Assembly (NCBI GenBank): GCA_965220075.1
Contig: OZ244806.1
Location: 519,009-583,008 of the forward strand
Length of the DNA: 64,000 bases
Source of the DNA: Chloroflexota bacterium
GTDB taxonomy: Bacteria; Chloroflexota; UBA11872
Direction: 5' to 3'
Below are positions 4,177 to 56,515 of the stretch, piece after piece. Position numbers and translations under genes: made by a program. Under the pieces are notes generated by a model. The model searched no databases. It saw only the letters and a program-made list of their open reading frames with translations, and had not been told where the DNA came from. The number at the start of each line of letters is the position of its first letter. Within the stretch, counting starts at the first letter, position 1.

Positions 4177-4177
4177 C

Positions 4178-39101: not shown

Positions 39102-41627
39102 TCAACTCCGCAGCTCAGCCTCGAAGCGCTTGCCCAGCGCGCGCACGATCTGAGCATGCGCTTTGTCGACTTCGTCGTCCGTCAGCGTGCGATCGTGCGA
39201 CCCGTAGCTGATAGCGAAGGCCAGACTGCGCTTGCCGGGCGCGACCTGTGCGCCGCGGAATTCATCGAACAGCCGCAGGTCCTGCACGAGGCCGCGGCCG
39301 CTGCGGCGAATGGTCAGCTCTACCTCCTGGGCGGCTACGTGCTTGCCCACCACGATCGCGAGATCGCGCCGCGCGGGAGGGTACTGGGACCATGGCGCGA
39401 AGGCGCGCGCCGGTTCGCTCAGCGCCAGGATTCGGGGCATGTCCAGCAGCGCCGCCCAGGTGGGCTCGTCCAGATCGAACGCGGCCGCCACAGCCGGATT
39501 GATCTGCCCGTAGGCCGCCACGATCTCATCGTTGAGCGCCACGGCCGCGGCCTGCACGGCCTCGAAGGTGGGGTGCTTCAGCGCGACGTGTCGCAGCGCG
39601 GGCTCGCGCCCATCGCGCGCCTCGGATTGGACGCCGAGCCGGTGCAGGCACTCATCCAGCAGACCCTTTAGCAGCAGCAGATCGACCTCGCGCGTCTCGT
39701 TCCAGCGGCCCGCGCTCACGCGCGCCCCGGCAACCAGCGTCACTTGCCGGCGCTCCTCCGGCAGATCTCCATCGCGCGGCCAGAAGTTCGCCCCATACTC
39801 GAATAGGAGCAGGTCGCGATCGGCGTGTCGTCTGTTCGCCCGCAGCGTCTCCAGCAGGGTGGACAAGGCGGTGAGACGCATCGTGTCCTCGTCCGCGCTC
39901 AAGGGATTCAGCAGCTTCAGCGGTGCGCGATCCAGCGGCAGCAGACGGTCGCGAACCGCGCGCCCCGCCTCGTTCATACCGTCGCGCTCGCTTGCAACGC
40001 CTCCCTGCGGCGCTCCACCGCTGGTTTCGGTGGTTGGAATCAGACGCGCCATTCGGGTCACGCTCGTCATCGCGTACGAAACGCATTCCGTGAATCCGAG
40101 ACTGACCAGGATGTCGCGCACGTCGTCCTCGCGTGGGTTCGACTCCGACGCATACCCCACCGCCGTCCGACCCGCCGGCAGGGTGTCGGGGATGACGTCG
40201 TATCCGATCAGGCGCGCTACGTCCTCGATCACGTCGGCCGGACTACGCACGTCGCGCCGCCAGAAGGGCGGCTGCACCACCAGGCTTTCTCCTTCGTCTG
40301 TGATCTCGAACCCCACCGCCTGCAGGACGCCGCGCACCTGCGCGCGCGGATAGCTCACACCCACGAGCCGCTCGATATCCGCGTAGCCCAGCCTCACCGG
40401 GTCCACGGCCGCCGGACGGGGGTAGGCGTCGCTGGAGAGGAGCTCGCCGCGTCCGGCCCCAATCTCCTCCAAAAGCTGCACGGTGCGCGCCAGCGCCTGG
40501 GTTGTCAGCTCCGGCGGCAGGCCCTTCTCGAAACGGCGTGAGGCCTCGCTGCGCAGCCCCAGGCGCTGCGCGGTGCGGCGGATGCTGTAAGGGTTGAAGG
40601 TGGCGGACTCGAGCAGGACGGTGCGCGTGGCCGGCGTCACCTCGGTCTCCAGGCCGCCCATCACGCCGGCCAGAGCGATGGGGCGCTCCGTGTCGGCGAT
40701 CACCAGCGTGTCGCCGGTCAGCTCGCGCTCCTGCCCGTCCAGGGTTAGCAGCCGTTCGCCCGCCCGGGCCGCTCGGATCACGACTGCGTCTCCGCGCAGC
40801 TTGTCCCAGTCGAAGGCGTGCAGCGGCTGCCCGAGCTCCAGCATCACGTAGTTCGTCACGTCCACGATGCTGTTGATCGGCCGCATGCCGGCCAGCTCCA
40901 GACGCCGCCGCATCCAGGCGGGCGACTCACCCACTTGCACGTCCCGCACGAAAGCGGCCGAATAGCGCGCGCACAGGTCGGGGTCCTCGATCTCGATTGC
41001 CGCCTCGAGCTCCACGACCGACCGCCCGTCGGCCTCCATGGGTCCGGGGACGTGGAGCGGCGCGTCGAACAGGGCTGCCGCCTCGCGCGCTATGCCCACC
41101 ATCGAGAGGGCGTCGGGACGGTTGGCCTTGAGCTCGAACTCGATCACGTTCTCGCCAAGCACGTCCGCCAGTGGGGTTCCCACCGGCGCGTCGGGATCCA
41201 AGACCAGGATTCCCTCATGCGCCTCGCTCAATCCCAGCTCTTTCGGCGAGCAGAGCATCCCCTCCGAGGCCACGCCGCGGATCTTGGCCGGCTTCAGCCG
41301 TTTGCGGGTCGGCTCGGCGGCGTACGCGTCCCACAGCTCCGCGCCGGTATGCGCGAAGGCGATCTTGTCGCCCGCTTTGAAGTTCCACGCCCCGCAGACG
41401 ACCTGCGTCTCGCCGCCGCCCGTGTCGACGACCGGGAGATTCAACCGATCGGCGTTGGGATGCGGATCCACCCTGACTACGCGGCCCACCACGATCCGAT
41501 CCCAGGCCTCGCCGCCGCGATGGACCTTTTCCACCTCGAATCCGGCGTCCGTCAGACGGCGCGCGATCTCGGCGGCGGGGGCCTCCAGCGGCGTCAGCGA
41601 GCGCAACCACTCTACCGGGACACGCAT
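39102..41627 (-). CDS. pheT: Phenylalanine--tRNA ligase beta subunit
   Basis: 841 aa with the N-terminal tRNA-binding domain, B3/B4, B5 and C-terminal FDX-ACB; MRVPVEWLRSL... Confidence 0.95.
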   Translation of the reverse strand: MRVPVEWLRSLTPLEAPAAEIARRLTDAGFEVEKVHRGGEAWDRIVVGRVVRVDPHPNADRLNLPVVDTGGGETQVVCGAWNFKAGDKIAFAHTGAELWDAYAAEPTRKRLKPAKIRGVASEGMLCSPKELGLSEAHEGILVLDPDAPVGTPLADVLGENVIEFELKANRPDALSMVGIAREAAALFDAPLHVPGPMEADGRSVVELEAAIEIEDPDLCARYSAAFVRDVQVGESPAWMRRRLELAGMRPINSIVDVTNYVMLELGQPLHAFDWDKLRGDAVVIRAARAGERLLTLDGQERELTGDTLVIADTERPIALAGVMGGLETEVTPATRTVLLESATFNPYSIRRTAQRLGLRSEASRRFEKGLPPELTTQALARTVQLLEEIGAGRGELLSSDAYPRPAAVDPVRLGYADIERLVGVSYPRAQVRGVLQAVGFEITDEGESLVVQPPFWRRDVRSPADVIEDVARLIGYDVIPDTLPAGRTAVGYASESNPREDDVRDILVSLGFTECVSYAMTSVTRMARLIPTTETSGGAPQGGVASERDGMNEAGRAVRDRLLPLDRAPLKLLNPLSADEDTMRLTALSTLLETLRANRRHADRDLLLFEYGANFWPRDGDLPEERRQVTLVAGARVSAGRWNETREVDLLLLKGLLDECLHRLGVQSEARDGREPALRHVALKHPTFEAVQAAAVALNDEIVAAYGQINPAVAAAFDLDEPTWAALLDMPRILALSEPARAFAPWSQYPPARRDLAIVVGKHVAAQEVELTIRRSGRGLVQDLRLFDEFRGAQVAPGKRSLAFAISYGSHDRTLTDDEVDKAHAQIVRALGKRFEAELRS

Positions 41628-41633
41628 GAGCTC

Positions 41634-42677
41634 CTACCTGAACTGACGCAGCAGTCGCAGGTCGTTGCGATACAGCATGCGCATGTCTGGAATGCCGTAC
41701 TTGAGCATGGCAATGCGCTCGATGCCCGCGCCGAAGGCGAATCCCTGATAGCGGTTAGGGTCGTAGCCGACGTTCCTGAGCACCGTGGGATGCACCATGC
41801 CCGCGCCCAGAATCTCGATCCAGCCATTGCCTCCGCAGACCCGGCAGCCCTCGCCGCCGCAGACGTGGCAGGTCATCTCGGCCTCGGCGCTGGGCTCCGT
41901 GAACGGAAAGTAGCTGGCCCGCAATCGCAAACGGCGTTCCCGTCCAAACATCTCGCGCACGAAGTGCGCCAGCGTGCCGCGCAGGTCGGCCATGGTGATG
42001 TGCTCGTCGATGGCAAGCCCCTCGAACTGCATGAACTCGGCTTCGTGCAGCGCGTCGCGGTCTTCATGGCGGTAGCACTTGCCCGGCATGATTACCCGGA
42101 TTGGCGGCTGCACCTCCTGCATCACCCGTATCTGCACCGGCGACGTGTGGGTGCGCAGAAGCATCTCGCCCGGCCGCCGCTCGTCCTTCACGAACAGCGT
42201 GTCCCACATGTCGCGTGAAGGGTGGTCGGGCGGGATGTTCAAAAGCTCGAAGTTGTAGAGGTCCCATTCGACCTCCGGCCCCTCCACTGCGCGAAACCCC
42301 AGCGGAGCGAAGATGCGGCGAATCTCGCGCACGGTGCGGGTGAGGGGATGCAGCGCCCCCAGGCGCACCGGATACCCCGGCATCGTCACGTCCACCGGCG
42401 GCACCGGTTCCGCGCCGGACCCAAGCCGCGCGGCCTGCGCCTCCAGCGCTTGCGTAAGCGCCGAGCGAGCCGCGTTTCCGACCTTTCCCGCCGACTGGCG
42501 CTCCGCGGGCGGAAGGCCGCCGAGCGAGCGCATCAAACTGTTGAGCTCGCTTCTGCGCCCGAGATGGCGTACGCGCCACGCCTCTAGATCGGATTCCGAG
42601 CTCACGGCGTCAAGCTCGGCGCGCGCAGCCTCTGTGACCTGCTCAATGCGTTCTTTCAACACCACTCGATTCGGCAT
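41634..42677 (-). CDS. pheS: Phenylalanine--tRNA ligase alpha subunit
   Basis: PSRDMWDTLFV...FRPxYFPFTEPSAE...GCGMVHP class II aaRS motifs. Confidence 0.95.
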   Translation of the reverse strand: MPNRVVLKERIEQVTEAARAELDAVSSESDLEAWRVRHLGRRSELNSLMRSLGGLPPAERQSAGKVGNAARSALTQALEAQAARLGSGAEPVPPVDVTMPGYPVRLGALHPLTRTVREIRRIFAPLGFRAVEGPEVEWDLYNFELLNIPPDHPSRDMWDTLFVKDERRPGEMLLRTHTSPVQIRVMQEVQPPIRVIMPGKCYRHEDRDALHEAEFMQFEGLAIDEHITMADLRGTLAHFVREMFGRERRLRLRASYFPFTEPSAEAEMTCHVCGGEGCRVCGGNGWIEILGAGMVHPTVLRNVGYDPNRYQGFAFGAGIERIAMLKYGIPDMRMLYRNDLRLLRQFR

Positions 42678-43449
42678 GGGACGCTTGGGCGCGCTGCCGC
42701 GCCGCCTCGAACAGGATAACGGCGGCCGCCGACGCTGCGTTTAGCGAATCCACCTCAAGGCTCATGGGGATGCGCACCGAATCGTCCGCCAAGCCTCGCA
42801 GCGGAGCGGACACGCCATGCGCCTCCGAGCCGATGATAAGCGCTTGCGGCCCGGTCCAATCGACTTCTGCGTAGTCGTGCGAACCGTCGGCCGCGGCCGC
42901 GTGAATCCGCGCTCCCTCCAGCGCGGCCCGCACGGACTCGGCCGTCGCGGCCGCCCACACGGGAATCTGAAACTGCGCGCCCGCGCCGGCCCGCATCGCT
43001 TTTGGACCAAACGGATCGGCGCCGCCCGTGAGCCAGCACACGTCCGTTGCCGCCGCCGCGGCGGCCGTGCGCACCAGCGCGCCCATGTTGCCCGGGTCCT
43101 GCACCCCATCGATCACCAGCGTCAGGCGCGCCCCACTGCGCGCGGCGGGTTTTGGGATGCTCACTTCCGCCAGAATCCCGGCCGGCGTCTCGGTCTGGGC
43201 CGCGGCCGCCAGCACGGCCCGCGTGCAGGCTGCCACCTCGATCTCACGTTGCCTCGCGCTGCTCGCCAGCCGGCAAATCGTGTCCCCTGCGCCAGCCTCG
43301 AACAGGACGAATGTCACCTCACCATGCGTCAGCGCCGCATCGACCAGACGCAGACCTTCGACAATCGTGCGTCCGCGCTGCCGCCGCGTGCGTGCGTCCG
43401 CCAGCGCGCGTATTGTCCGGATGCGGGGATTGCGGCTGCTCGAGATCAT
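42643..43449 (-). CDS. TrmH/SpoU-family RNA 2'-O-methyltransferase
   Basis: LTLVIDGVQDPGNMGALVRTAAA...LIIGSEAHGVS...SLNAASAAAVILFE. The 3' end overlaps the pheS start. Confidence 0.8.
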   Translation of the reverse strand: MISSSRNPRIRTIRALADARTRRQRGRTIVEGLRLVDAALTHGEVTFVLFEAGAGDTICRLASSARQREIEVAACTRAVLAAAAQTETPAGILAEVSIPKPAARSGARLTLVIDGVQDPGNMGALVRTAAAAAATDVCWLTGGADPFGPKAMRAGAGAQFQIPVWAAATAESVRAALEGARIHAAAADGSHDYAEVDWTGPQALIIGSEAHGVSAPLRGLADDSVRIPMSLEVDSLNAASAAAVILFEAARQRAQASHAESSGVERTH

Positions 43450-43486
43450 GGCCAGTTCACCGCTGCCGGCCTCATTGGCCGCGGAC

Positions 43487-43840
43487 CTAGCTGGCCGCCT
43501 GCGCCTGCCTGACGAGCCCTTCGAAGGCCTGCGGCTGATTTACCGCCAGATCGGCCAGGACTTTTCGATTCACCTGCACGTCGGCCCGGCGCAAGCCGTT
43601 CATCAGGCTGCTGTAGGTGAGGCCCAGCATGCGGGCACGCGCGTTGATACGCGCTATCCACAAACGCCGCATGTCGCGTTTGCGCGTGCGCCTGTGCATG
43701 TAGGCGTAATGCCGCGCCCGCATGAGGTCCTCATGCGCGGCCCGAACCTGACGGCTGCGCGCGCCTCGGTGGCCCTTGACGGCCTTCAGAATGCGGCGGC
43801 GGCGGCGGCGGCTCGCAACGCTTCGCTTTACGCGCGCCAA
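43487..43840 (-). CDS. rplT: 50S ribosomal protein L20
   Basis: MARVKRSVASRRRRRRILKAVKGHRGARS... Confidence 0.9.
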   Translation of the reverse strand: MARVKRSVASRRRRRRILKAVKGHRGARSRQVRAAHEDLMRARHYAYMHRRTRKRDMRRLWIARINARARMLGLTYSSLMNGLRRADVQVNRKVLADLAVNQPQAFEGLVRQAQAAS

Positions 43841-43852
43841 TCCCGCCTCCTG

Positions 43853-44047
43853 CTAGGACGCCAGCAGACGCCGCGCCGTGCGCAACTGACTGCCCGCCAG
43901 TGGCTGCTCATGGCCCTTGGCGCGGCGCGCGCGGGCGCTCTTGCGGCGCCGCGAGCTAGTGGCCGTGCCCTTTGCGGATGTGATCTTGCCGCGCCGCGTC
44001 ATGCGCAGGCGCTTCGCGGCCGCCTTGCGGGTCTTCAGCTTGGGCAT
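43853..44047 (-). CDS. rpmI: 50S ribosomal protein L35
   Basis: Internal start MPKLKTRKAAAKRLRMTRRGKI... Confidence 0.85.
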   Translation of the reverse strand: MPKLKTRKAAAKRLRMTRRGKITSAKGTATSSRRRKSARARRAKGHEQPLAGSQLRTARRLLAS

Positions 44048-44089
44048 TAGAACAAAAAACGCGGCACACGTAGTGTCGCGAGAACTCAC

Positions 44090-45440
<1,351 letters not shown>

Positions 45441-45472
45441 GGACGCTCCACGATGGCGCCGGAGGATTTCAG

Positions 45473-45838
45473 ATGATAAACGGGGTCCATTCGCTGATCT
45501 TCACCAAGGATGCCGAGGCCGCGCGCGCGTTTTTCCGCGACGTGCTCGAGTTCCCGTGGGTGAACGCTGGCGACGGCTGGCTCGTCTTCGCGCTGCCGCC
45601 CATGGAGATCGGCCTGCACCCGGAGGACGGCGACCGCAGCCATGAGATACATCTCCTCTGCGACGACATTCACGCAACCGTGGCGCGGCTCCAGGCCAAG
45701 GGCGTCAAGCTCGTCCAACCCGTCCACGAAGAGGTATGGGGAATCGCCACCGCCATCGAGGTCCCCGGCGGCGCCTGGATCGGCCTCTACCAGCCCAAGC
45801 ACCCACTGGCAATCCAGCCCTCACCGCCGCCCTCCTAG
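45473..45838 (+). CDS. VOC-family (glyoxalase/bleomycin-resistance fold) protein
   Basis: MINGVHSLIFTKDAEAARAFFRDVLEF...HEIHLLCDDIHATVARLQAKGVKL. GGAGG lies 7 nt upstream of the ATG. The 569-aa listed ORF was rejected except for this segment. Confidence 0.7.
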   Translation: MINGVHSLIFTKDAEAARAFFRDVLEFPWVNAGDGWLVFALPPMEIGLHPEDGDRSHEIHLLCDDIHATVARLQAKGVKLVQPVHEEVWGIATAIEVPGGAWIGLYQPKHPLAIQPSPPPS

Positions 45839-46116
45839 CCGCCCATCGGGGCCTACATCCGAACCCGCCGTCCTTCCCGTACCAGCCTCTGGCGCTGCTG
45901 GGATCTCGGTGGGCTCACAGATCGGCCCGCCGACCAGCGCGGGGGGGGCAAAATCTTGACAGTCTGGCGCGCCTCTACTAGCGTTTTGCCGTGGAGCATC
46001 TGGCAAGTGCTCCGTTACCCCCCTAGCCACTTCGCTGGCTGGGATAGAGGCTGCCTGCGGGCGGTCTCTGCCGCTTTAAGGGCTCGATTACAACAATCAA
46101 GCAGCGCACGAATTTA

Positions 46117-46335
46117 GTGACATGTCCGGCCGCCACCATCTACGTGGACGGATTCAACCTCTACTATCGCGCCCTTCTAGACACGCCTTGGCGCTGGCTG
46201 GACCTCCAGGCCCTGGCTGTCCGGCTGCCCGGACTGTATTGGCGCCATTGGCAATCTGTGGGGCCTAAAAAAAATCGAGACCTACCCACGAGCAGCGCGA
46301 TAGACGGCGCGTCACTGAAGTTGTGCCCCGCGTAG
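46117..46335 (+). pseudogene. Remnant of a NYN-domain (LabA/DUF88-like) gene
   Basis: TIYVDGFNLYYRALL matches the NYN N-terminal signature. The ORF ends after 72 aa. The surrounding region has lower GC. Confidence 0.35.
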
Positions 46336-46345
46336 ACTCTACGCG
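46329..46345. promoter_or_regulatory. Perfect palindrome cgcgtaga-c-tctacgcg 40 bp upstream of the ATPase gene
   Basis: 8-bp arms with a 1-nt spacer, seen directly. It may be an operator or a terminator. Confidence 0.3.
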
Positions 46346-46382
46346 CGGGCAGCGGCGTGGTGCCGACACGGAGGGGTGACGG

Positions 46383-47561
46383 ATGCAAATCGAGAGCATC
46401 CAAATCAAGAACTACCGGCTCTTTCGCAGCGTCACCCTGAGTGATCTGCCGCGCATGGCTGTGGTCGTGGGCGCCAACGGGTCAGGCAAATCGACGCTGT
46501 TCGACGTCTTCACCTTCCTCAAGGACGCGCTGACTCAGAACGCCGCCGCGGCGGTGGCCAGGCGCGGCGGATTCCGCGAGTTGGTCAGCCGCGGTGAGCA
46601 GGGTCCAGTCGGAATCACCATCAAGTTTCGCGAGAGCGGCGGGCGGCTGGCGACCTATCTGCTCGATGTTGCCGTAGCGAGCGGGCGCGTGGTCGTGGAC
46701 CGCGAAGTGCTGCGCTACCGCCGAGGCCAGGGAGGCGGTCGGCCCTGGCGCTTCGTGGACTTCTCGCGAGGTGCCGGAACCGCAATCACCAACGAGTCTG
46801 CCTATGGCCAGGAAGGCGTGGACGAGGAGCGCGAGAACTACGAGCTCGACGATCCTAGCGTCCTCGCCATCAAGGGCCTGGGTCAATTCCGCGAGTTCCG
46901 GGTAGTCGCGGAGTTCCGCAACCTGATCGAGAACTGGCACGTCTCAAACTTCCATGTCGCCGACGCCCGGCCTAGCGCCGAGGTCGGCTACGCCGAGCAC
47001 CTTTCCACCCGCGGCGACAACGTCGCGCAGGTTGCTCAGTACCTCTACGAGAACGAGCGCGAGCGCTTCAACCAGGTCCTCGCGGCCATGAGCCGGCGCG
47101 TCCCTGGCGTGAGCGGCGTCGAGGCCAAACCCACCGAGGACGGGCGTCTTGTGCTGCGCTTCCAGGACGGCAGCTTCCGGGACCCGTTCATTGCCCGCTA
47201 CGTCTCGGACGGCACGATCAAGATGTTCGCCTACCTTGTGCTGCTCTACGACCCCAAGCCGCACCCCCTGCTGGCAATCGAGGAGCCGGAGAACCAGCTC
47301 TACCCCGAGTTGCTGCCGGAGTTGGCTGAAGAGTTCCGCGACTACGCGCGGCGCGGCGGCCAGGCGTTCGTTTCGACCCACTCGCCCGACTTCCTGAACG
47401 GAGTGGAGCTCGACGAAATCCTCTACCTGGTCAAGCAGGACGGCTTCACCACCGTGCACCGCGCTCGTGAGAGTGAGTTACTGCGCAATCTGGTGGCAGA
47501 GGGGGACTTGCCAGGCGCGCTGTGGAAGCAGGGGCTGTTCGAAGGCGCGGGGATTCAGTGA
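46383..47561 (+). CDS. AAA_21/ABC-type ATPase, OLD-family N-terminal-domain-like (AbiLi-like)
   Basis: IQIKNYRLFRSVTL...VVVGANGSGKSTLFD (Walker A)...LLAIEEPENQLYPELL (Walker B/D-loop)...STHSPDF (H-loop). No fused nuclease domain. Confidence 0.75.
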   Translation: MQIESIQIKNYRLFRSVTLSDLPRMAVVVGANGSGKSTLFDVFTFLKDALTQNAAAAVARRGGFRELVSRGEQGPVGITIKFRESGGRLATYLLDVAVASGRVVVDREVLRYRRGQGGGRPWRFVDFSRGAGTAITNESAYGQEGVDEERENYELDDPSVLAIKGLGQFREFRVVAEFRNLIENWHVSNFHVADARPSAEVGYAEHLSTRGDNVAQVAQYLYENERERFNQVLAAMSRRVPGVSGVEAKPTEDGRLVLRFQDGSFRDPFIARYVSDGTIKMFAYLVLLYDPKPHPLLAIEEPENQLYPELLPELAEEFRDYARRGGQAFVSTHSPDFLNGVELDEILYLVKQDGFTTVHRARESELLRNLVAEGDLPGALWKQGLFEGAGIQ

Positions 47562-48118
47562 GCCGGCTGGTGCTTCTGCTCGAAGAGGCCTCCATGAAAA
47601 CACTTCTCGATAGGCTTCTGCCACGGCTCTTCCCAGACCTGACGTTCCTCTGTGTTAGGCATGAGGGCAGGCAGGACCTCGAAAAGAGCATCCCGCGCAA
47701 GCTGCGCGCATGGCGGGAGCCGGGAGTCCGCTTCCTAGTGCTGCGGGACAACGACGGCGGCGACTGTCACGCCCTGAAAGATAGGCTCCTCGGACTCTGC
47801 CGGCAGGGCGGCCGGGGCGATTCGCTGGTGCGGATCGCGTGTCAGGAACTCGAAGCCTGGTACCTGGGCGAGCCGGAGGCGCTGGCGGACGCGTTTTGCA
47901 ACGAAGAGCTGCGTGGGATCCGCCGACTGGCGCGCTATCGAAATCCAGACGCGGTCGCGACGCCATCTAAAGCTATCAAGCGGCTCATACCTGAGTTCCA
48001 GAAAATATCGGGCGCCCGCCGGATGGCGCAGTTCCTTTCAAAGGAACGCAACCGATCCACCAGCTTCCAGACGCTGCTGCGCGGAATTGAGCGACTCTGT
48101 CCGGACGCCTCCCAATAG
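47558..48118 (+). CDS. DUF4276-family protein (TOPRIM-like E...DxD), AbiLii-like partner of the ATPase
   Basis: The GTG overlaps the ATPase stop (GTGA). LVLLLEEASMKTLLDRLLPRLFP...FLVLRDNDGGD carries a conserved Glu and a DxD, consistent with a split OLD-family TOPRIM. Confidence 0.6.
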   Translation: MSRLVLLLEEASMKTLLDRLLPRLFPDLTFLCVRHEGRQDLEKSIPRKLRAWREPGVRFLVLRDNDGGDCHALKDRLLGLCRQGGRGDSLVRIACQELEAWYLGEPEALADAFCNEELRGIRRLARYRNPDAVATPSKAIKRLIPEFQKISGARRMAQFLSKERNRSTSFQTLLRGIERLCPDASQ

Positions 48119-48353
48119 GGACCAACCGCCCATGGGTGAGTGCCCGCAAGCCGATCGAGGTCGATCTGTCACTGGATGACATCAATGCGGCGTCGGTGCA
48201 TGGCATGGGAAGGCTGTCCCGCGACGTGGCCAGAGGGCATCGTTTTGGGATATGGACCCGCGGGTTTCGTCAGAAGTTTGGACTCTGGCCGTCCTGACCG
48301 CGCTACGCTGCCGTCGTACTGCATTTTGAAGGCCGCGGCCGGCTAGAAGCTCC

Positions 48354-49082
48354 ATGCGCGTCGCGCTTTTTGCAGACGTTCACGCCAACCTGACGGCGCT
48401 GCGGGCCGTCTTGGCGGACATCCGGGCGCGCGGCCCGTTCAATCTCATCGTCTCCGACGGCGACCAGATAATGGGTGGGCCGCGTCCGCTCGAGGTTTGG
48501 AGCGAGCTGCGGGAAGGCGGTGTGACGCTGCTGCGCGGCAACGTAGAACGCGATCTCGGCAGCGGCCGTTTCCCGCCTGAGCCTGCCGGCGGAAAGAACC
48601 GCGCCGCCATCGAGTCGGTTTTCTACTGGACCCTGGAGCAAGTTCCCGACCAGGTGCGCGCGGCGGCCGCGGGGCTTCCCGCGGAACTGAAGGTCGAGAT
48701 GGACGGCGCGCCGCCTCTCGTGGTCGTGCACGCCAACCGAGACAATCTGGACGACTTCATATGGGAAGACACCCCGCCCGCTGAGTTGCGGCGTTTGATC
48801 GGCCACCCGCCGCCGGGTCTGCTCGTGCTCGGTCACGTGCACGCGCCGCTCGACATGCAGTTCGAGTCGACCCGTATCGTGCGCCCTGGCAGTGTGGCCC
48901 TGAAGTACGAGGCCGACGTGTACAACCTGGCGCACTGGGCCGAGGCCGCCTGGGACACCAGCGTCGGCGCCTGGACCTGCCGCAGTCACGTCGTGGCCTG
49001 GGACCACCGCGCGGAGATCGAGGCGGCTTACGCCGTCGGGTATCCCGGCGTCGAGATATTGCCGGGATTCGACCGCGCCTGA
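48354..49082 (+). CDS. Calcineurin-like metallophosphoesterase (YfcE-like)
   Basis: MRVALFADVHAN...VSDGDQI...GNVE...LLVLGHVHAP. Confidence 0.75.
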   Translation: MRVALFADVHANLTALRAVLADIRARGPFNLIVSDGDQIMGGPRPLEVWSELREGGVTLLRGNVERDLGSGRFPPEPAGGKNRAAIESVFYWTLEQVPDQVRAAAAGLPAELKVEMDGAPPLVVVHANRDNLDDFIWEDTPPAELRRLIGHPPPGLLVLGHVHAPLDMQFESTRIVRPGSVALKYEADVYNLAHWAEAAWDTSVGAWTCRSHVVAWDHRAEIEAAYAVGYPGVEILPGFDRA

Positions 49083-49185
49083 CGCCCAGAGCTGCTGTCA
49101 GCGCGCGGCCGTCCCTTGTAGGCGAGTAGCCTGACTGCGATGCTTGAGCAGAATGTTGAGTGGGGGGGCTGCGGTTGTGAGCACG

Positions 49186-49524
49186 ATGGTCACCGAGGAC
49201 GAGGTTCGCGAGAAGCTGGGCACCGTGATAGATCCCGAGATCGGGATCGGCATCGTGGATCTCGGGCTCATCTATGAAATCGCCATAGCGCCCTATCACC
49301 CCGAGGAGGGCGAGCCGGAGGCTGAGCCGGAGGACCTGGCGGTCAAGGTCACCATGACGCTTACCACGCCCGGCTGCCCGGCCGGTCCATACATCCTGCA
49401 GCAGGTGAAGGAGCAGGCGGAGTCGATAGACGGCGTAAGGAAATCCAAAATCGACCTGACCTTCAGCCCGATGTGGAACGAAGACATGATGAGCGAGGAC
49501 GTGCGCTGGATCCTTGGCCGCTAG
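49186..49524 (+). CDS. DUF59/MIP18-family Fe-S cluster assembly protein (SufT-like)
   Basis: TEDEVREKLGTVIDPEIGIGIVDLGLIYEI...TMTLTTPGCPAGPYI. Confidence 0.65.
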   Translation: MVTEDEVREKLGTVIDPEIGIGIVDLGLIYEIAIAPYHPEEGEPEAEPEDLAVKVTMTLTTPGCPAGPYILQQVKEQAESIDGVRKSKIDLTFSPMWNEDMMSEDVRWILGR

Positions 49525-49617
49525 GCGGTTTCGATCGGCCGGGTTGCAAACCGACTCCATAGTCCTAGCCTTCTACCTCGATCAGGCTGGCCGCGAGCGC
49601 GCTAATCCGCCGGGTAC

Positions 49618-50355
49618 TTGATCGTGCGGATCAGCTTCACCAAGCTCGATCTCTTCGAGTTCTGCCCTTGGGCCTACCGCTACCGCTACGTCGAGCGAAT
49701 CCCCACGCCGTTTTCACCGCGGCTTGCCACCGGCGCCGCGGTTCACGCCGTGCTGCGGCGGTTCTTCGAGCGCCTGCAGTCGGGCGCGCAGGCCGGACTG
49801 TCCGAGCTTCTCGCTATGTACGAGGACTATTGGGCTGGTGCGCCTTGGCTCGATCCGGCGCGGCAGCCAGACCTGTGGGACCGGGGTCTGGCGCTTCTCA
49901 AAGGCTTTTGGGCCGCCAACGCGGCTAACCTGGGCCGTCCTGTTCTGCTTGAGGCGCGCTTTCGTGTATCGCTGGAGCCAGGTGATCGGCACACCGTGGA
50001 GGGCCTGATCGACCGCGTGGACGAAACGGCTGGCGGCGTGGAGATCATCGATTACAAGAGCGGCGCCCGGCCCGACGGCTTGCCCGAGTACACGCGTACC
50101 CAGCTGCACACTTACGCGCTTGCCGTCGAACGCCAGTTCGGTTTGACCCCTGTGCGTCTTACGGCCTACTTCCTTAGCGACAACCGCGCCTTGTCGTCCG
50201 CGCCGGATCGCGGCTATGCCAGCCGACTGCGAAAGCGCTTCGCGGCTGCCGCCGCTGACATCGCCGCGGGGAGTTTCGGGGCGACTCCCGGACCGCAGTG
50301 CGCGCGCTGCGATTACGCCGACCGCTGTCCCCATAAGTGGACCGAAGGCGCGTAG
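49618..50355 (+). CDS. PD-(D/E)XK-superfamily nuclease with a Cas4/AddB-like four-Cys cluster
   Basis: The FCPWAYRY N-terminal Cys plus the C-terminal CARCDYADRC give the 1+3 Cys spacing of Cas4/RecB-family Fe-S nucleases. The central IDRVDE...IIDYKSG matches the D...E-x-K core. Confidence 0.6.
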   Translation: MIVRISFTKLDLFEFCPWAYRYRYVERIPTPFSPRLATGAAVHAVLRRFFERLQSGAQAGLSELLAMYEDYWAGAPWLDPARQPDLWDRGLALLKGFWAANAANLGRPVLLEARFRVSLEPGDRHTVEGLIDRVDETAGGVEIIDYKSGARPDGLPEYTRTQLHTYALAVERQFGLTPVRLTAYFLSDNRALSSAPDRGYASRLRKRFAAAAADIAAGSFGATPGPQCARCDYADRCPHKWTEGA

Positions 50356-50500
50356 CCCGACCCGGCCGGATACGGGACCGTTTCGCGCCCCAAGGCGCAA
50401 GGCTTGCTCGTCGGTAGGAGCGAAAGAAGACCGGGGCGAAACGCGGCCGAAAAAGCCTCTTTTAGTCTACCCGGGCAAGTCGTAGGAGTCGCGAGACCCT

Positions 50501-51802
50501 CTAAGAGCCGAGCCGTCCATTGCCGCCGGCGATCGGGCAGGATCCGGCCTCGCAATGATGATCGCGGATGTGCGCCTCGAACTCGTCGCGGAAGATCCGC
50601 ACCGCGCCGCGCACCGGCTGATGAGCGAAATGGCCTAGAGCACAGAACGAAGCCATCATGCTGGCGCCCAGCTCCTCCAGCAGATCGAGGTCGTCCATTG
50701 TTCCCTGGCCGTGCATGATGCGCTCGCAGATTTGCACCAGATTGGGCGCACCCTCACGGCAGGGAATACAGAATCCGCAGCTCTCTTCCTCGAAGAAGAG
50801 GGCGTCCCGATAGGCCGCGTCCACCATGCACGCCGAGTCGTCGTATACGACCACGCCTCCGGTGCCCATGATGGTCCCCAGCGCGGACATGGATTTCGGC
50901 TCCAGCGGCGCGTCCAGATTGTCGGGCCCGAGCGGCGCCGAGGAAGCCCCGCCGGGCTTGAAGCCCTTCAACGGCCGCCCGCTGCGTACTCCTCCGCCGT
51001 ATTCGAAGATCAGCTCGCGCGCCGTAGTGCCCAGGGGCAGCTCGTGCACGCCGGGATTCGCGACGTGTCCGGAGAGGCAGTACATCTTCGTGCCCGCCGC
51101 GCCGCCCGCGCCCAGGCCCTGAAACCACTCGGCGCCCTTCGTCACGATATCCGGCGCGCAGGAAAGAGTCTCGACGTTGTTGATCGCCGTCGGCTTGCCC
51201 CAAACCCCCACGTTAGTCGGGAAGGGCGGCTTGAAACGCGGATTGCCCCGCTTGCCTTCCAGCGAGTTGAACAGCGCGGTCTCCTCACCAACTATGTAGG
51301 CCCCGGCGCCGCGCCGGAACTCTAGATCGAAGTTGAAGCCCCTCTTGCCCAGCACGTCCTGGCCCAGATAGCTCGCCTGGTAGGCCTCGCGCATCGCCGC
51401 CTGCACGCGCTCGTGGGACAGCCCGTACTCGCCCCGAATGTAGACGTACCCGCGCTCCGCGTTGGCCGCGTAGGCGGCGATGAGCATCCCTTCCAGCATC
51501 AAGTGGGGATCGAGCTCCAGCGAGTAACGGTTCACGTAAGTGCCGGGCTCGCTCTCGTCGCCGTTGCTCACGACGTAACGCGGCGTCTTCGGGTCCTTGC
51601 GTACGAACTCCCACTTGAGTCCGGTCGGGAAGAAGGCCCCCCCGCGCCCCGTCAGACCGGAGGCTTTGATGACATCGGTCACGTCCTCCGGGGCCATCTC
51701 GCGCAGCACCCGCTCGAGCGCTTCATAGCCGCCGGCTTCACGGTACGACCGCAGCGTCCACGACTCCGGCCGCCCGAAGTTCTTGGTGACCACCCGTTCC
51801 AT
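50501..51802 (-). CDS. nuoF: NADH dehydrogenase flavoprotein subunit (NuoF/51-kDa family)
   Basis: GRGGAFFPTGLKW...NGDESEPGT...ESCGFCIPCREG...C (N3 cluster). ATG at 51802. The N-terminal Arg-rich 77 aa of the listed ORF were rejected. Confidence 0.85.
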   Translation of the reverse strand: MERVVTKNFGRPESWTLRSYREAGGYEALERVLREMAPEDVTDVIKASGLTGRGGAFFPTGLKWEFVRKDPKTPRYVVSNGDESEPGTYVNRYSLELDPHLMLEGMLIAAYAANAERGYVYIRGEYGLSHERVQAAMREAYQASYLGQDVLGKRGFNFDLEFRRGAGAYIVGEETALFNSLEGKRGNPRFKPPFPTNVGVWGKPTAINNVETLSCAPDIVTKGAEWFQGLGAGGAAGTKMYCLSGHVANPGVHELPLGTTARELIFEYGGGVRSGRPLKGFKPGGASSAPLGPDNLDAPLEPKSMSALGTIMGTGGVVVYDDSACMVDAAYRDALFFEEESCGFCIPCREGAPNLVQICERIMHGQGTMDDLDLLEELGASMMASFCALGHFAHQPVRGAVRIFRDEFEAHIRDHHCEAGSCPIAGGNGRLGS

Positions 51803-51807
51803 TGGCT

Positions 51808-52329
51808 TCAGACCTCGCCGTCGCGCAGCTCGCGAATCAACACCGGCACGTCTTCCGGCCGTATCGGTCCGCGCTGATCCAGGTTCACCGACATGGCTGG
51901 TTGTTTGTCGCACAGGCCCAGGCAGGAGACGGCCTCGATCTTGAACTCGGAGTCGCCGCTCACCTCGCCTCGCCGGATTCCCAGCTCCTGCTCCAGCGCC
52001 GCGAAGACCCCCTGCGCGCCGGCCAGGTGGCAACTCAAATCACGGCACACGCGCAAAATGTGCTTTGGCTGAGGCGCCAGGTAGAACATGGTGTAGAAAG
52101 TCGCAACGCCAAAGACTTGGCTTTCGGGAATGCGGAGCTCCTCGGCGATCGTGCTGATCGTCTCCGGGGGCACGTAGCTGAACAAGGCCTGCGCGGCGAA
52201 CAGCGCCTCTAGCGTGGAGCCCGGCCGGCCTTTGAACTCCCGCAGTTGCGCGCGCAGCCGCTCGAGCTTAGGTTGGTCCTCGGATCGCAGCGCCGGCCGG
52301 CCGGGAGCGCCGGCTTCCGTCACCGCCAT
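51808..52329 (-). CDS. nuoE: NADH dehydrogenase 24-kDa subunit (NuoE, 2Fe-2S)
   Basis: CRDLSCHLAG...VSCLGLCDKQPAMSVN. ATG at 52329. Confidence 0.85.
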   Translation of the reverse strand: MAVTEAGAPGRPALRSEDQPKLERLRAQLREFKGRPGSTLEALFAAQALFSYVPPETISTIAEELRIPESQVFGVATFYTMFYLAPQPKHILRVCRDLSCHLAGAQGVFAALEQELGIRRGEVSGDSEFKIEAVSCLGLCDKQPAMSVNLDQRGPIRPEDVPVLIRELRDGEV

Positions 52330-52898
52330 TGGCGGCGCAGGTCGAAAAGGCCCACGGCCAAGCGAGCGCTTCCTTCCTGAAGGGGGCGAACGGAGGCCGA
52401 GTCTATCACCTGGGGCTGCGGCGTCAGACCGGGACGTACCCATGACCCGGCTGCGGCTCGCGTTCGTGAATGTCCCAGCCTGGGCTGCGACGCCGCGTTA
52501 GGCTGCGTTCGACAGCACGTCCGAGGCGCATCCGATGGCCCTCACCCAAGCTCAGGCCCGCGAGCTGCGCAGCCTCATGCAAACCTGGAATAAGTCGTCC
52601 CGCGAAGTCGGCGACATGCTGGGCGGTTCCGCCGTGACGGCCGGCGGCTTGCAGATGAACCGTCTGCGCGCGGCGATGGATCGCCGCTCGCAGGCTGAGC
52701 AACTCGTAATAGCCTTCTGGTCCCGCACCTCCTAGAGATCGGGATTTCAGCCCGACCCGAGCTCGCGGGCCGACCGGCCGGCGTGACCCGGCTTGCAAGA
52801 TCCGCCGGCGCTTGAAAGCGCGCGCCTCTATCCGTCCGATCGGAGGCTGGCGGGCCGAGCGCGGCATAATTGACCGACTCGGCTAAAGGGGCCGCACC

Positions 52899-53273
52899 AT
52901 GTCTCTCGCGAATGCTAGGACGAATATCGAACGGTGCATCGAACGCCTGCGCGCCGGAACTTTGCGCGAGCAAGATCTGGCGCGCGTGCGAGACGAGCTC
53001 GAGTCCTCCGGGACGCCGCGCCAGGACATCCTCTATCTACAGGCCAGAAGCACCGACCTCGCGAGCGAGGTCGTGGGCATGCGTCTGGTACGCAACGGCG
53101 CCATGTACGAGGGCGCCGACGATCCCGACGAGTGGCCCTATCAGTCGGTCCTGGACGCTATCCAGGATGGCTGGCGCGTGATCGAGTTTCCCAACCTGGC
53201 CCTGTTGCTGGACGAGTCGCGCGCGTACGGTCTGGGCGTCGAGTTCATCCTCGAGAAGATCGAGGCGGCTTGA
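52899..53273 (+). CDS. Hypothetical protein (124 aa) coupled to the downstream PhyH-family dioxygenase
   Basis: Its stop overlaps the next ATG (TGATG). Non-Arg-rich, plausible coding composition. No known motif. Confidence 0.4.
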   Translation: MSLANARTNIERCIERLRAGTLREQDLARVRDELESSGTPRQDILYLQARSTDLASEVVGMRLVRNGAMYEGADDPDEWPYQSVLDAIQDGWRVIEFPNLALLLDESRAYGLGVEFILEKIEAA

Positions 53274-54133
53274 TGGATACCTCCCATGTCGCGCCCACTC
53301 TCACCGACACGCAGGTCTTGGACTTCTGCAAGAACGGCTACCTGGTGCTGGAGGGCGTCGTCTCCGCGGAGGTCAACCGCCGCACGGTTGAGTTTCTCAA
53401 CGAGGATGCGCGGAACGTGATCGAGAACCCGGGCGAGCCGAGCGAAATCCTGCACGAGGATTGGTTCGTCGACAGCGTGATCATGAATCCCGCCGCGGCC
53501 GGCGCCGTGCGCTGTCTCCTCGGTGCGAACTTCGCGACGCCGGTGCTGATAAGCAACCACCGTATGCGCATGCCTCAGCCGCCGCAGACCTGGCATCGCG
53601 ACAGCGGCTCGCGCCACGGTCCCGCACTTCATTACCTGCAGGTGTTCTACTACCCCGAGGACTGCCCCGTGGAGATGGGCCCCACCGAGGTGCTGCCCGG
53701 CTCGCACCTGCTCTTCCAATACGCGAGCCACATGGGGCACTACGGCGGCGTGCGGGAGGCTGTCAAGACCGCCGCGCCGGCGGGCTCGATCTTTCTGACC
53801 GTGTACTCGATCTGGCACCGGCGCTCGCGGTCGACCGCCAGTGGGATTCGCAACCTGCTCAAGTACAACTACTGGCGCACGGCGCCGCCGCAGCGCGACT
53901 GGATTGTCGATCCCGAGTTTGACTTCGGCACGGCCAACTACGCGCTGCCCAGGCCGGCCATGCGCCACCGGCTGTACGAGGACGGCGCCCGCATGTTCTT
54001 CTGGCTGTGCGGAAAGTCCGACGAGTTCCACACCATGGGCGGCCAGGGCTGGCCCATGAGCGCCGCGCTCGGACACCACTACATCGACCGTTCCATGGGC
54101 TATCCCGGCGAGCCGACCGGCACCATCTACTAG
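53274..54133 (+). CDS. Phytanoyl-CoA dioxygenase (PhyH) family protein
   Basis: LDFCKNGYLVLEGVV...WHRDSG...LPGSHL... The upstream part of the 399-aa listed ORF is in a different reading context and was rejected. Confidence 0.7.
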
Positions 54134-54335
54134 CTGCGTCCCAATGCGTCCTATTTCGGACCAGGAAGCACGAATGAGGCTTTGCTCACAGCCGGCGAGG
54201 GCGATTTCTATCGCGTGACTGCTAAGAGTGTATTCCGTCACGTGCGCCGCCTGGATCCTCTTTGATATTTTGTATTCCAGCGAGTTGCGAGATATATGCA
54301 TGCCCTGTATAAGTATGCACAAAGACTGCCGAGTC

Positions 54336-54372
54336 TTGACTCACACACGCCTTTTTTATGACATCTGATATG
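54336..54372 (+). promoter_or_regulatory. AT-rich region with a TTGACT (-35-like) and a TATGAC/TTATGA (-10-like) upstream of the glycan-cluster methyltransferase
   Basis: ttgactcacacacgccttttttatgacat lies within a 285-bp stretch whose GC is far below the window average. Confidence 0.25.
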
Positions 54373-54418
54373 CGTGACTGGGCTTCAGCGTGGAGTACGA
54401 ACTTGCTAAGTTTAGAAG

Positions 54419-55405
54419 GTGAGATTGATGTCTGGTAGTTCGTCCAGCGACCTCGGCGGTGTTACAAATCACAGCCATAGCTGCGCATTGTGCTCCTCCC
54501 GCGTCCATATCCCTACTGGGATAAAGCCGCCGCCCTACACCCTGCCGGAATACCGGTTCGAGATTCTTCGTTGCGCCTCATGCGGCCTGATGTCTACGCA
54601 GCCGCAGCTGACGCCCACTGAACTCAAGTCGGTATATGACTTGATTGACTACTATTCGCTTTCGGAGGCTACCGACCAAAGCGCGGCCAGTGGATCGGAG
54701 CGGCTGCGCTGGAGCGTGCGTAGTCGGGTCACGCGGTACTACTACGCGCGAGACCGCAAGGGCGCGGGCTTGCTGACTCGACTGATCGCCATGGCCGCCC
54801 ACCGGCGCTTTGGCTGGGCTCCCTCTAACCTCCAGGGCAGCCATTTACTCGATGTCGGATGCGGCGACGGCGCTTTCCTTCTTGACGCGCGCGACGCGGG
54901 CTGGACGGTCCAGGGCCTGGAGTTCTCGGAAACGGCCGGCGCCAACGCTGCGCGCCTGGGCCTCAACGTCACAATCGGTCGGCTTGAAGATCGCCCGTTC
55001 GAGCCGGAATCCTTCGACGTGGTGCGGCTTTGGAGCGTCTTAGAGCACCTATCCGATCCGTGTGGAGCAATGCGTGAAGTCGCCCGCATTCTGCGGCCGG
55101 GAGGCTGGGCGATTGTCCAGACGCCCAACGCCCGATCGCCGGCGGCGCGCCTGATCGGCGACGGCTGGATCGGCTGGCAGATACCTGTCCACCTCAATCA
55201 CTTTACGCCTGCCACTCTGGAGCGCACAATCCGCACCACCCGGCTGCTACCGGTCGAGGTGCACCACGCCTCCATAGGAACCTTGACCTGCGGCCTTCAC
55301 CCCAACCTCAGAAGCGCGCGTTACCTCATCGTTCTCGTGGACTACTTATTGGATCTGCTCAAGCTCGGCGATTGCGTCGTGGTGTTCGCTCGAAAACCCG
55401 CCTGA
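54419..55405 (+). CDS. Class I SAM-dependent methyltransferase with an N-terminal Cys4 zinc-ribbon
   Basis: CALCSS...CASCGL (2x CxxC) followed by LLDVGCGDGAFL (motif I)...FDVVRLWSVLEHLSDP...LRPGGWAIVQTPN. Confidence 0.7.
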   Translation: MRLMSGSSSSDLGGVTNHSHSCALCSSRVHIPTGIKPPPYTLPEYRFEILRCASCGLMSTQPQLTPTELKSVYDLIDYYSLSEATDQSAASGSERLRWSVRSRVTRYYYARDRKGAGLLTRLIAMAAHRRFGWAPSNLQGSHLLDVGCGDGAFLLDARDAGWTVQGLEFSETAGANAARLGLNVTIGRLEDRPFEPESFDVVRLWSVLEHLSDPCGAMREVARILRPGGWAIVQTPNARSPAARLIGDGWIGWQIPVHLNHFTPATLERTIRTTRLLPVEVHHASIGTLTCGLHPNLRSARYLIVLVDYLLDLLKLGDCVVVFARKPA

Positions 55406-56419
55406 TCACCGCGTACCCCAGCCATCGCGACTCATGATCCCGTAGCCAAGCCAATTTGCGACAACGCCTTCCGCATAAGTGAGGAGCGTGACCCAGCACA
55501 CTGGGATGTGGAATAACCAAACCCAGCTTGGCGCACGCCGGAACCCACGTATCGCTTGTAGAACCAGCGGTAAGATCGTAATGGTTGAAATGCAGAAATA
55601 GATAATCCTGAGCGATGTTCCCTGTAGCACGTCACCGCGCACACCGACGGATCGGTAGTGCAGGTAATCACGGACTCTCCGCTTCTGCTTACGGCGGAAG
55701 ACCGAGAAGCTATCCGCATAGAAGTGAGCGATTTCAGGATATGACTTCGCAACTGACACGAATCTACCAGGCGCACCCAGCCTTAGGATGTCGACATCGA
55801 CGAGGAGTCCGTCGCTAACCGCTCTGCGAACGAATTCAGTGCGGGCCATGAAGCCGTTGGAGCCAATTGTCGGAGGCCTGTTCTTGTCAAATGTGACTTT
55901 GCTATAACCTTCTCTATTCACGACTCGTAACATTGGAAGATCGGTCCAGCGGCCTGTAACCATGCTGAATCGATCATAGTCGCCAATGAACAGCCGCAGA
56001 GGGTCATTCATTCCGAGCAGGGCAAAATAGCGGTTCAAAGGCTTCATGCCGGGTACGACGCCAAACGCGATGGCTTCGGAAGCGACAATTTCTTCGTCCT
56101 CGAATGGTTTCATCATGCGCGCCAGCCAGTCATCTCCGATGAGTATGTTGTCGGCGTCTACGGATAGCATGAACGGATACTTCGCCGCGCCGAGACCGCG
56201 GGCTTTGCCCGCCTCTGTCGTGACGTCTTCGTTGGCAACCACCCGGCAGCCTGCGCGCCGTGCGACCGCGACGGTGGAGTCAACCGAACCCCCGTCCGCG
56301 ACGATCACCTCGACATCGCCCAGTGTGTATTGCTGTCGACCTATTGAGCGCAGCAGATGACCCAAATCATCCGCGCAGTTCAACGTCGGCACTATGATGC
56401 TGATCGATCTATCGTTCAT
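55406..56419 (-). CDS. Family 2 glycosyltransferase with two C-terminal TM helices (ArnC-like polyprenyl-phosphate aminosugar transferase)
   Basis: ISIIVPTLNCADDL...VIVADGGSVDST...SVDADNIL, followed by C-terminal TM segments. Confidence 0.7.
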   Translation of the reverse strand: MNDRSISIIVPTLNCADDLGHLLRSIGRQQYTLGDVEVIVADGGSVDSTVAVARRAGCRVVANEDVTTEAGKARGLGAAKYPFMLSVDADNILIGDDWLARMMKPFEDEEIVASEAIAFGVVPGMKPLNRYFALLGMNDPLRLFIGDYDRFSMVTGRWTDLPMLRVVNREGYSKVTFDKNRPPTIGSNGFMARTEFVRRAVSDGLLVDVDILRLGAPGRFVSVAKSYPEIAHFYADSFSVFRRKQKRRVRDYLHYRSVGVRGDVLQGTSLRIIYFCISTITILPLVLQAIRGFRRAPSWVWLFHIPVCWVTLLTYAEGVVANWLGYGIMSRDGWGTR

Positions 56420-56515
56420 CGCCGTGCGCAAACCTTAGCCGACGCTCTGAGCCATGCATATCCGTATACCGGCTGCGCGACAACTACTCGCCATCACTAG
56501 ACGGCCAAGCGCCGG

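Follow-up and report, generated by a model that had tools for sequence, protein, structure and literature searches.

Does the run of genes between positions 45960 and 50400 of this window (64,000 nucleotides of contig OZ244806.1 from a Chloroflexota bacterium) form one defence island, or have genes of different origin come to lie side by side there? The original prediction proposed a possible extended defence or accessory island made up of a truncated NYN-domain gene, an ATPase-TOPRIM pair, a metallophosphoesterase (MPE), a SufT-like iron-sulphur (Fe-S) assembly protein with a DUF59 domain (here DUF59), and a PD-(D/E)XK nuclease with a Cas4-type cysteine cluster (NUC). We find that the interval very probably consists of two unrelated pieces, an accessory insert (44155-48353) that carries the candidate defence system HEC-01, and core genes of the chromosome (48354-50355). 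Gene identities were taken from the listing of open reading frames (ORFs) and from Pfam, PADLOC and NCBIfam profile searches of the window proteins; by these, every gene named in the original prediction is present at about the coordinates given and was correctly typed.

The trio MPE, DUF59 and NUC was compared across 34 Chloroflexota loci with 10-kb flanks, which were retrieved with a profile of the nuclease family and onto which all window proteins were mapped by tblastn. The same gene order recurs over about 13 kb in 31 genomes (NUC 51-58% identical), running pheT-pheS-trmH-rplT-rpmI, MPE-DUF59-NUC and nuoF-nuoE. The neighbours of NUC in these syntenic loci are 42-86% identical to the window proteins (80-86% for nuoF and 54-67% for nuoE). 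Orthologues of MPE with 52-63% identity are found at this position in 29 relatives and also in the locus L072, and those of DUF59, with 59-76% identity, are upstream of NUC in all 30 assessable relatives. DUF59 has MPE upstream of it in 29 of 30 assessable loci, and nuoF converges on NUC in 30 of 31. All adjacencies of the block are thus kept about equally often, and the trio carries no signal beyond general synteny. The block was also seen in L072 and L073, which were reached separately through a nuclease of 48% identity and come with precomputed gene calls and Pfam labels, and in independent gene calls and Pfam annotation of L066 and L067, two genomes that share about 99% identity with the window and were found through the ATPase. 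The L066 gene calls identify nuoF and nuoE by the Pfam families Complex1_51K/NADH_4Fe-4S and 2Fe-2S_thioredx. Since about 30 species-level relatives have the trio at this place in their chromosomes, it is not a new defence island; core synteny of this kind is the observation that the original prediction had itself set against its proposal.

The trio is not a tight operon. In 22 genomes DUF59 and NUC are 1.16-1.68 kb apart, with the space between them taken up by a gene for a GH113 glycoside-hydrolase lipoprotein (Pfam 1.5e-49) or by two genes for membrane proteins, of which one is on the opposite strand; such an opposite-strand gene separates DUF59 from NUC in L006 and L027. In seven genomes MPE and DUF59 are separated by about 0.9 kb with a weak PIN-like ORF. 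The original prediction had also asked whether the three genes occur together in other genomes, and outside the syntenic clade they largely do not: neither MPE nor DUF59 was found within 10 kb of NUC, even at E 1e-2, in L028, L029 and L034, which hold the most divergent NUC homologues (35-43% identity). Judged from ORF translations, the genes around NUC in these loci encode a cyclophilin, an M20 amidohydrolase and a MATE transporter. The trio thus appears, from its sequence and gene order, to consist of vertically inherited chromosomal genes that are neither mobile nor a defence module, their adjacency being an inherited gene order.

The DNA on the other side of MPE is variable. The distance from rpmI to MPE is about 195 nt (191-200 nt) in 17 genomes, 0.76-6.45 kb in ten that carry other cargo, and 4.3 kb in the window. 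In the ten filled relatives the cargo consists mainly of leucine-rich-repeat (LRR) proteins of varying length. The variable spacing and the variable cargo mark the divergent intergenic region between rpmI and MPE as a recurrent cargo site, and the segment 44155-48353 of the window is accessory DNA in this region. None of its components, namely an IS110-family insertion sequence (IS110), a glyoxalase gene of the VOC family, the NYN stub and the HEC-01 pair, has a tblastn match in the 34 Chloroflexota loci. The original prediction was right about this left part, as none of 31 family-level relatives has the NYN stub and the ATPase-TOPRIM pair within 10 kb. Both L066 and L067 carry the glyoxalase gene (called as 121 aa in each), the NYN stub, the HEC-01 pair, the trio and nuoFE.

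PADLOC assigns both proteins of the ATPase-TOPRIM pair to HEC-01. The ATPase matches the HEC-01 model PDLC04144 at 2.6e-174 and 578 bits (residues 1-390 on model positions 1-393 of 395), and the DUF4276 protein matches the HEC-01 model PDLC04143 at 1.5e-59 (model positions 3-184 of 190). HEC-01 (Hma-embedded candidate 01) is an ABC ATPase with a TOPRIM protein that was discovered inside Hma (helicase-methylase-ATPase) systems (Payne et al., bioRxiv 10.1101/2024.01.29.577857); the embedding is how HEC-01 was found and is not required by the PADLOC model. DUF4276 has been placed in the Toprim superfamily, related to Mad4 (PMC12065111). Like the Hma-embedded copies, the window pair is a two-gene unit of one ABC ATPase and one TOPRIM-like DUF4276 protein encoded on the same strand by overlapping genes; unlike them it is not embedded in Hma and sits in a housekeeping intergenic region beside ribosomal protein genes. 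The GTG start of the DUF4276 gene at 47558, read directly, overlaps the ATPase stop codon as GTGA (4 nt), an arrangement from which we predict that the two genes are translationally coupled.

Homologues of the ATPase number more than 8000, and among the best 120 listed, 117 share 80-84% identity and are spread over several phyla, with Gammaproteobacteria, Nitrospirae, Thermoleophilia, Krumholzibacteriota and Planctomycetes among those named. Copies at 81-84% identity in L068, L070 and L071 (6001-7745) show the pair between DUF1156 and DUF499/HEPN_Swt1 genes, and in two of these three contexts (L068 and L070) an SNF2/NOV_C helicase lies upstream of it, which is the Hma arrangement. The Hma core genes (DUF1156 methylase, DUF499 ATPase and SNF2/NOV_C helicase) have no match in the window. 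Nucleotide homology to the Hma-embedded copies starts exactly at 46383 and ends at about 48092, and the DUF4276 protein is 63% identical to its L068 counterpart from its residue 1. Taken together, these matches indicate that the pair is an orphan, horizontally acquired copy of HEC-01, which is catalogued as a candidate defence system. For a defence candidate, the ATPase shows unusual conservation (80-84%), while its DUF4276 partner reaches only about 63%.

PARIS, AbiL, MADS and OLD/Gabija share the ABC-ATPase plus TOPRIM architecture and the ATPase superfamily with this pair, and the ATPase has weaker PADLOC matches to AriA (3.3e-29), AbiLi (4.4e-23, 80 bits), mad3 (1.2e-22) and GajA (5.6e-16). 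For its DUF4276 partner, the sole Pfam match is DUF4276, and all PADLOC matches are to HEC-01 models. The pair had been described as AbiL-like, which turns out to be a resemblance only: AbiL, composed of AbiLi and the RloB-family protein AbiLii, was ruled out by the 80 bits of AbiLi against the 578 bits of HEC-01 and by a partner with no AbiL-family match in Pfam or PADLOC. PARIS was ruled out, with only the AriA match at 3.3e-29 and no AriB/DUF4435 match of the partner, and so was MADS (Mad3/Mad4), for which NF047739 gave 120.9 bits against a cut-off of 420 and no methyltransferase is adjacent.

The truncated NYN-domain gene upstream of the pair was soundly called. Homology is confined to 46132-46227, the first 32 or so residues of a protein of about 210 aa, and the PADLOC HEC-09 match covers model positions 5-37 of 203. 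Residues 6-37 of the stub match residues 3-34 of P0171 (214 aa; Pfam NYN 3.4e-10) at 81% identity. The stub itself has no Pfam match, and no other NYN fragment was found in the window, including downstream of the cassette. A run of eight A at 46268-46275 in the stub is a run of seven in L066. We read the stub as a pseudogene fragment. Its family is also a known Hma-embedded candidate, in keeping with a defence-island origin. HEC-09, the NYN candidate, gave no protection against the phages tested (bioRxiv 10.1101/2024.01.29.577857).

Several observations weigh against a division into a HEC-01-bearing insert and an unrelated core. Nucleotide composition gives no mark of an insert: GC and third-position GC (GC3) per gene fail to distinguish insert from core in a window of 67.8% GC, the sole exception being IS110 (GC 0.75). 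The lower-GC stretch with which the interval had been said to begin is real, with 0.61 at 46000-46499 against 0.68 for the window, but it is mild and not diagnostic. The nearest insert-free genomes share only about 50-75% protein identity with the window, at which distance insertion here and loss elsewhere are not formally separable. On the side of the core genes, DUF59 is always on the same strand as NUC and upstream of it, at 3.1 kb or less, and L002 keeps DUF59-GH113-NUC though MPE, nuoFE and pheST are gone from the neighbourhood. Finally, HEC-01 gave no phage protection in the only published assay, which used E. coli (bioRxiv 10.1101/2024.01.29.577857).

This last result bears on the alternative that survives best, in which the HEC-01 pair here is a decaying, non-functional relic of a lost Hma island, a reading that we consider unlikely. 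The pair is orphaned from all Hma core genes and adjoins a dead NYN stub, but its two ORFs are full length against the PADLOC models, in the window as in L066, and the overlapping start and stop codons are retained. The ATPase is untruncated and 84% identical to Hma-embedded copies. In the sister strain L067 a 1-nt deletion at about 11340 (window 47722) interrupts the DUF4276 gene, which is called as a 135-aa fragment. The deletion may have inactivated the effector, as real decay of the pair, or it may be an assembly error of long reads in a homopolymer.

The next alternatives concern the nuclease. An alignment with 19 homologues shows no variation at C16, D132, D145, K147, Q162 and Y166, while C228, C231 and C237 are kept in at least 90% of the sequences. 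This pattern corresponds to the Cas4/AddB cysteines (one N-terminal and three C-terminal) combined with the RecB-family catalytic motifs D...D-x-K and Q-x-x-x-Y. The original prediction of a Cas4-type cysteine cluster on a PD-(D/E)XK nuclease is thereby borne out at the level of conserved residues, with cluster binding predicted. The AlphaFold (AF2) model has a mean pLDDT of 81.8, with low confidence only at the C-terminal cysteine loop. By fold it comes nearest to the AdnA/AdnB nuclease domain (7sjr, TMq 0.71), ACE1 (9iab, TMq 0.68) and AddB, and AdnAB is also the best PDB sequence match of the family profile (6ppu, 2.8e-4).

The nuclease domains of AdnAB and AddAB are thus the best fold match (7sjr_A, TMq 0.71; 6ppu_A, TMq 0.65; 3u44_B) and share the same motifs, whereas NUC is a 243-aa nuclease domain alone, with neither a helicase or helicase-like domain nor an adjacent helicase gene. 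It was ruled out as an AddB/AdnAB helicase-nuclease, there being no fusion to a helicase or pseudohelicase and no adjacent helicase gene in the L066 and L072 contexts. With Cas4 and ACE1 it shares the PD-(D/E)XK motif, a predicted Fe-S fold and a similar size (9iab; Cas4 structures 7mi4, 8d3l and 4ic1), but TIGR00372 scores 31.4 against a cut-off of 65 and identity to ACE1 is 12-14%. A CRISPR-associated Cas4 was ruled out by this sub-threshold score and by the lack of cas genes among the called neighbours in L066, L067 and L072, and ACE1 by a TMq of 0.63-0.68 with no Argonaute-type gene within 10 kb in the annotated orthologous loci. The orthologous loci examined also show no CRISPR-associated neighbours.

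Four conserved cysteines of the Cas4/AddB Fe-S type, in a nuclease encoded downstream of an Fe-S assembly protein, raise the possibility that DUF59 and NUC, or the whole trio, form one housekeeping unit in which the SufT-like protein serves as dedicated 4Fe-4S loader of the nuclease. We regard this as improbable. That all 30 assessable loci have DUF59 on the strand of NUC and upstream of it is suggestive, but the rpmI-MPE adjacency (at the level of the site) and the NUC-nuoF adjacency are conserved just as well. The pair is held together in L002 (with GH113 between) while both flanks differ, and yet unrelated genes split it in 22 genomes, an opposite-strand gene does so in L006 and L027, and the three most distant NUC orthologues have no DUF59 nearby. 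NuoE and NuoF are themselves Fe-S proteins, so that closeness to an Fe-S client is not specific. A further version, which we hold to be slightly less probable still, makes DUF59 the dedicated Fe-S maturation partner of NUC, the two forming a helicase-independent DNA-end-processing unit gated by Fe-S delivery; its basis is that the DUF59-NUC linkage outlasts both the insertions and the rearrangement of the L002 flanks.

That 45960-50400 is a single defence or accessory island, with the trio as a new nucleic-acid-targeting module acquired together with the ATPase-TOPRIM pair, is barely credible, for although the genes lie on one strand next to a bona fide defence candidate and an insertion sequence, and NUC has weak matches to the PADLOC Cas4 and DruK models (E 8e-11 to 3e-10) and a fold resembling the Argonaute-associated ACE1, about 30 related genomes have the trio but not HEC-01 at this place in the chromosome, Hma systems of other phyla have HEC-01 but not the trio, the nucleotide homology of the cassette stops at about 48092, before the trio, MPE and DUF59 match no PADLOC model, and neither cas nor Argonaute genes are among the neighbours in L066 and L072.

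We therefore return to an accessory insert that lies beside inherited core genes. The variable site between rpmI-rplT and MPE would have received a glyoxalase gene, a HEC-09-like NYN gene that is now dead and the HEC-01 cassette, with IS110 present at the site in this strain alone. The cassette, normally embedded in Hma, would have arrived by horizontal transfer and stand on its own. On the model of OLD, PARIS and Gabija, its ATPase might detect a phage signal and then allow the TOPRIM nuclease to cleave nucleic acid. On the core side, MPE may be a separate small binuclear-metal phosphodiesterase with a housekeeping function, DUF59 a general SufT-type Fe-S maturation factor whose clients could equally be NuoE and NuoF, and NUC a stand-alone Fe-S exonuclease, similar to the AddB/AdnAB nuclease domain, that trims DNA ends in repair or recombination. 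Separate housekeeping roles are the likeliest for the trio, which is the fallback that the original prediction had allowed for its three genes, and the evidence favours it.

The consequence for the trio is that conserved housekeeping genes are kept from being logged as a candidate defence system, which matters little beyond correct annotation. For HEC-01, the locus shows that the cassette can occur on its own, as two genes free of Hma, in a Chloroflexota genome of sponge or marine type, and for this lineage it identifies the intergenic region between rpmI and the phosphoesterase gene as a recurrent site of cargo. The stand-alone, AddB-like Fe-S nuclease family is uncharacterised, and nothing here suggests an unusual role for it.

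Table. Features of the interval and its flanks in window coordinates; the last row gives loci of relatives in their own coordinates.
Feature	Position	Strand	Evidence or remark
rplT + rpmI	43487..44050	-	conserved left flank; tblastn identity 65-77% in relatives
IS110-family insertion sequence, 1180 bp	44155..45334	-	Pfam DEDD_Tnp_IS110 8.5e-21, Transposase_20 5.4e-20
Glyoxalase/VOC-family gene, 121 aa	45473..45838	+	Pfam Glyoxalase 1.1e-8
NYN-domain (HEC-09-like) gene stub	46117..46335	+	PADLOC HEC-09 6.2e-5
HEC-01 ABC-type ATPase, 392 aa, intact	46383..47561	+	Pfam AAA_21 6.7e-31, also AAA_15; PADLOC HEC-01
HEC-01 DUF4276/TOPRIM-like putative nuclease, 186 aa	47558..48118	+	Pfam DUF4276 4.8e-15; PADLOC HEC-01
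Metallophosphoesterase (MPE), 242 aa	48354..49082	+	Metallophos_2 1.2e-12
DUF59/SufT-like Fe-S assembly-family protein, 123 aa	49153..49524	+	FeS_assembly_P (PF01883) 3.1e-15
Stand-alone PD-(D/E)XK nuclease (NUC), 243 aa	49624..50355	+	PDDEXK_1 5.5e-38
nuoF + nuoE	50501..51802 + 51808..52329	-	conserved right flank, convergent on the NUC gene
LRR cargo loci in relatives	L003 2523-8795; L004 3655-5463; L005 3470-8398; L006 2856-7159; L010 6691-8652; L031 6740-8626

The insertion sequence is missing from both L066 and L067 and is thus specific to this strain. In the empty site of L067, window positions 44154 and 45335 adjoin with an ambiguity of 2 nt (AG), right next to the palindrome GGGCGGTTCGCGAACCGCC, and comparison with it delimits the element as 44155-45334. 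IS110 had been taken as one boundary of the interval; the element is there, but the glyoxalase-family gene separates it from the interval. The transposase ORF spans 44177-45226, with a likely ATG start at 45124. If this ATG is the start, about 210 nt upstream of the transposase inside IS110 are non-coding and would offer a place for a possible bridge or guide RNA. A self-BLAST of 44000-48400 against the window gave the self-match only, with neither boundary repeats nor a second copy of the element. No tRNA gene was found in the window and no Rfam match in 40000-54000, and a promoter and terminator scan of 43800-50700 gave counts at chance level.

The glyoxalase/VOC gene is accessory cargo of the variable site, with no detected link to defence. 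At the IS110 site, L066 has a different segment of 675 bp (8358-9032), which encodes a secreted-looking protein of 167 aa; its precomputed label is PF27111 (Rv1352), and our own Pfam scan gave no match. The LRR proteins found as cargo between rpmI and MPE are secreted, measure 600-1640 aa, have eukaryote-like repeats and occur in one subclade of the relatives. Such eukaryote-like repeat proteins often occur in host-associated bacteria, and the names of several metagenome-assembled genomes among the LRR-carrying relatives suggest an origin from sponges.

The nearest solved relatives of MPE in a PDB sequence search are 3qfm (1.2e-7) and 3rqz, and that of DUF59 is TM0487 (1uwd, 2.4e-16). DUF59 shares the FeS_assembly_P domain with the TTPGCP cysteine motif with the SufT/DUF59 family (TM0487, MIP18 and PaaD). 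It differs from SufT in scoring below the NCBIfam cut-offs (SufT TIGR03406, 93.7 versus 202.6; SUF_assoc TIGR02945, 81.4 versus 143.4) and in its context, which is not a suf operon, its neighbours being MPE and NUC as in L066. L004 has two copies of the DUF59 gene (6594-6911 and 8005-8322) between MPE and NUC, which points to a local duplication.

Distant tblastn matches of NUC in Clostridia and Oscillospiraceae are C-terminal nuclease domains of full-length AddB and are therefore uninformative on the trio. In Merdimmobilis hominis (L043, 7760-16915) and other Oscillospiraceae, addB-addA lies immediately upstream of infC-rpmI-rplT-trmH; that an AddB-type nuclease domain is found near rpmI-rplT-trmH both there and in these Chloroflexota is probably a coincidence. 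A nuclease homologue of 394 aa (P0047, 30% identical) occurs in an unrelated context. At 2866-7033 the window also encodes an SbcD-like metallophosphoesterase of 436 aa and, after it, a 951-aa ABC ATPase resembling SbcC/Rad50, so a canonical DNA-end-processing nuclease is found elsewhere in the same stretch.

Downstream of the right flank, GC falls to 0.53-0.58 at 54000-56500, against 0.68, in a segment that both sister strains share. The genes there encode a class I methyltransferase, a family-2 glycosyltransferase and then a DegT-type aminotransferase, and compared with the interval studied here the segment has more the look of glycan-modification DNA gained by horizontal transfer.

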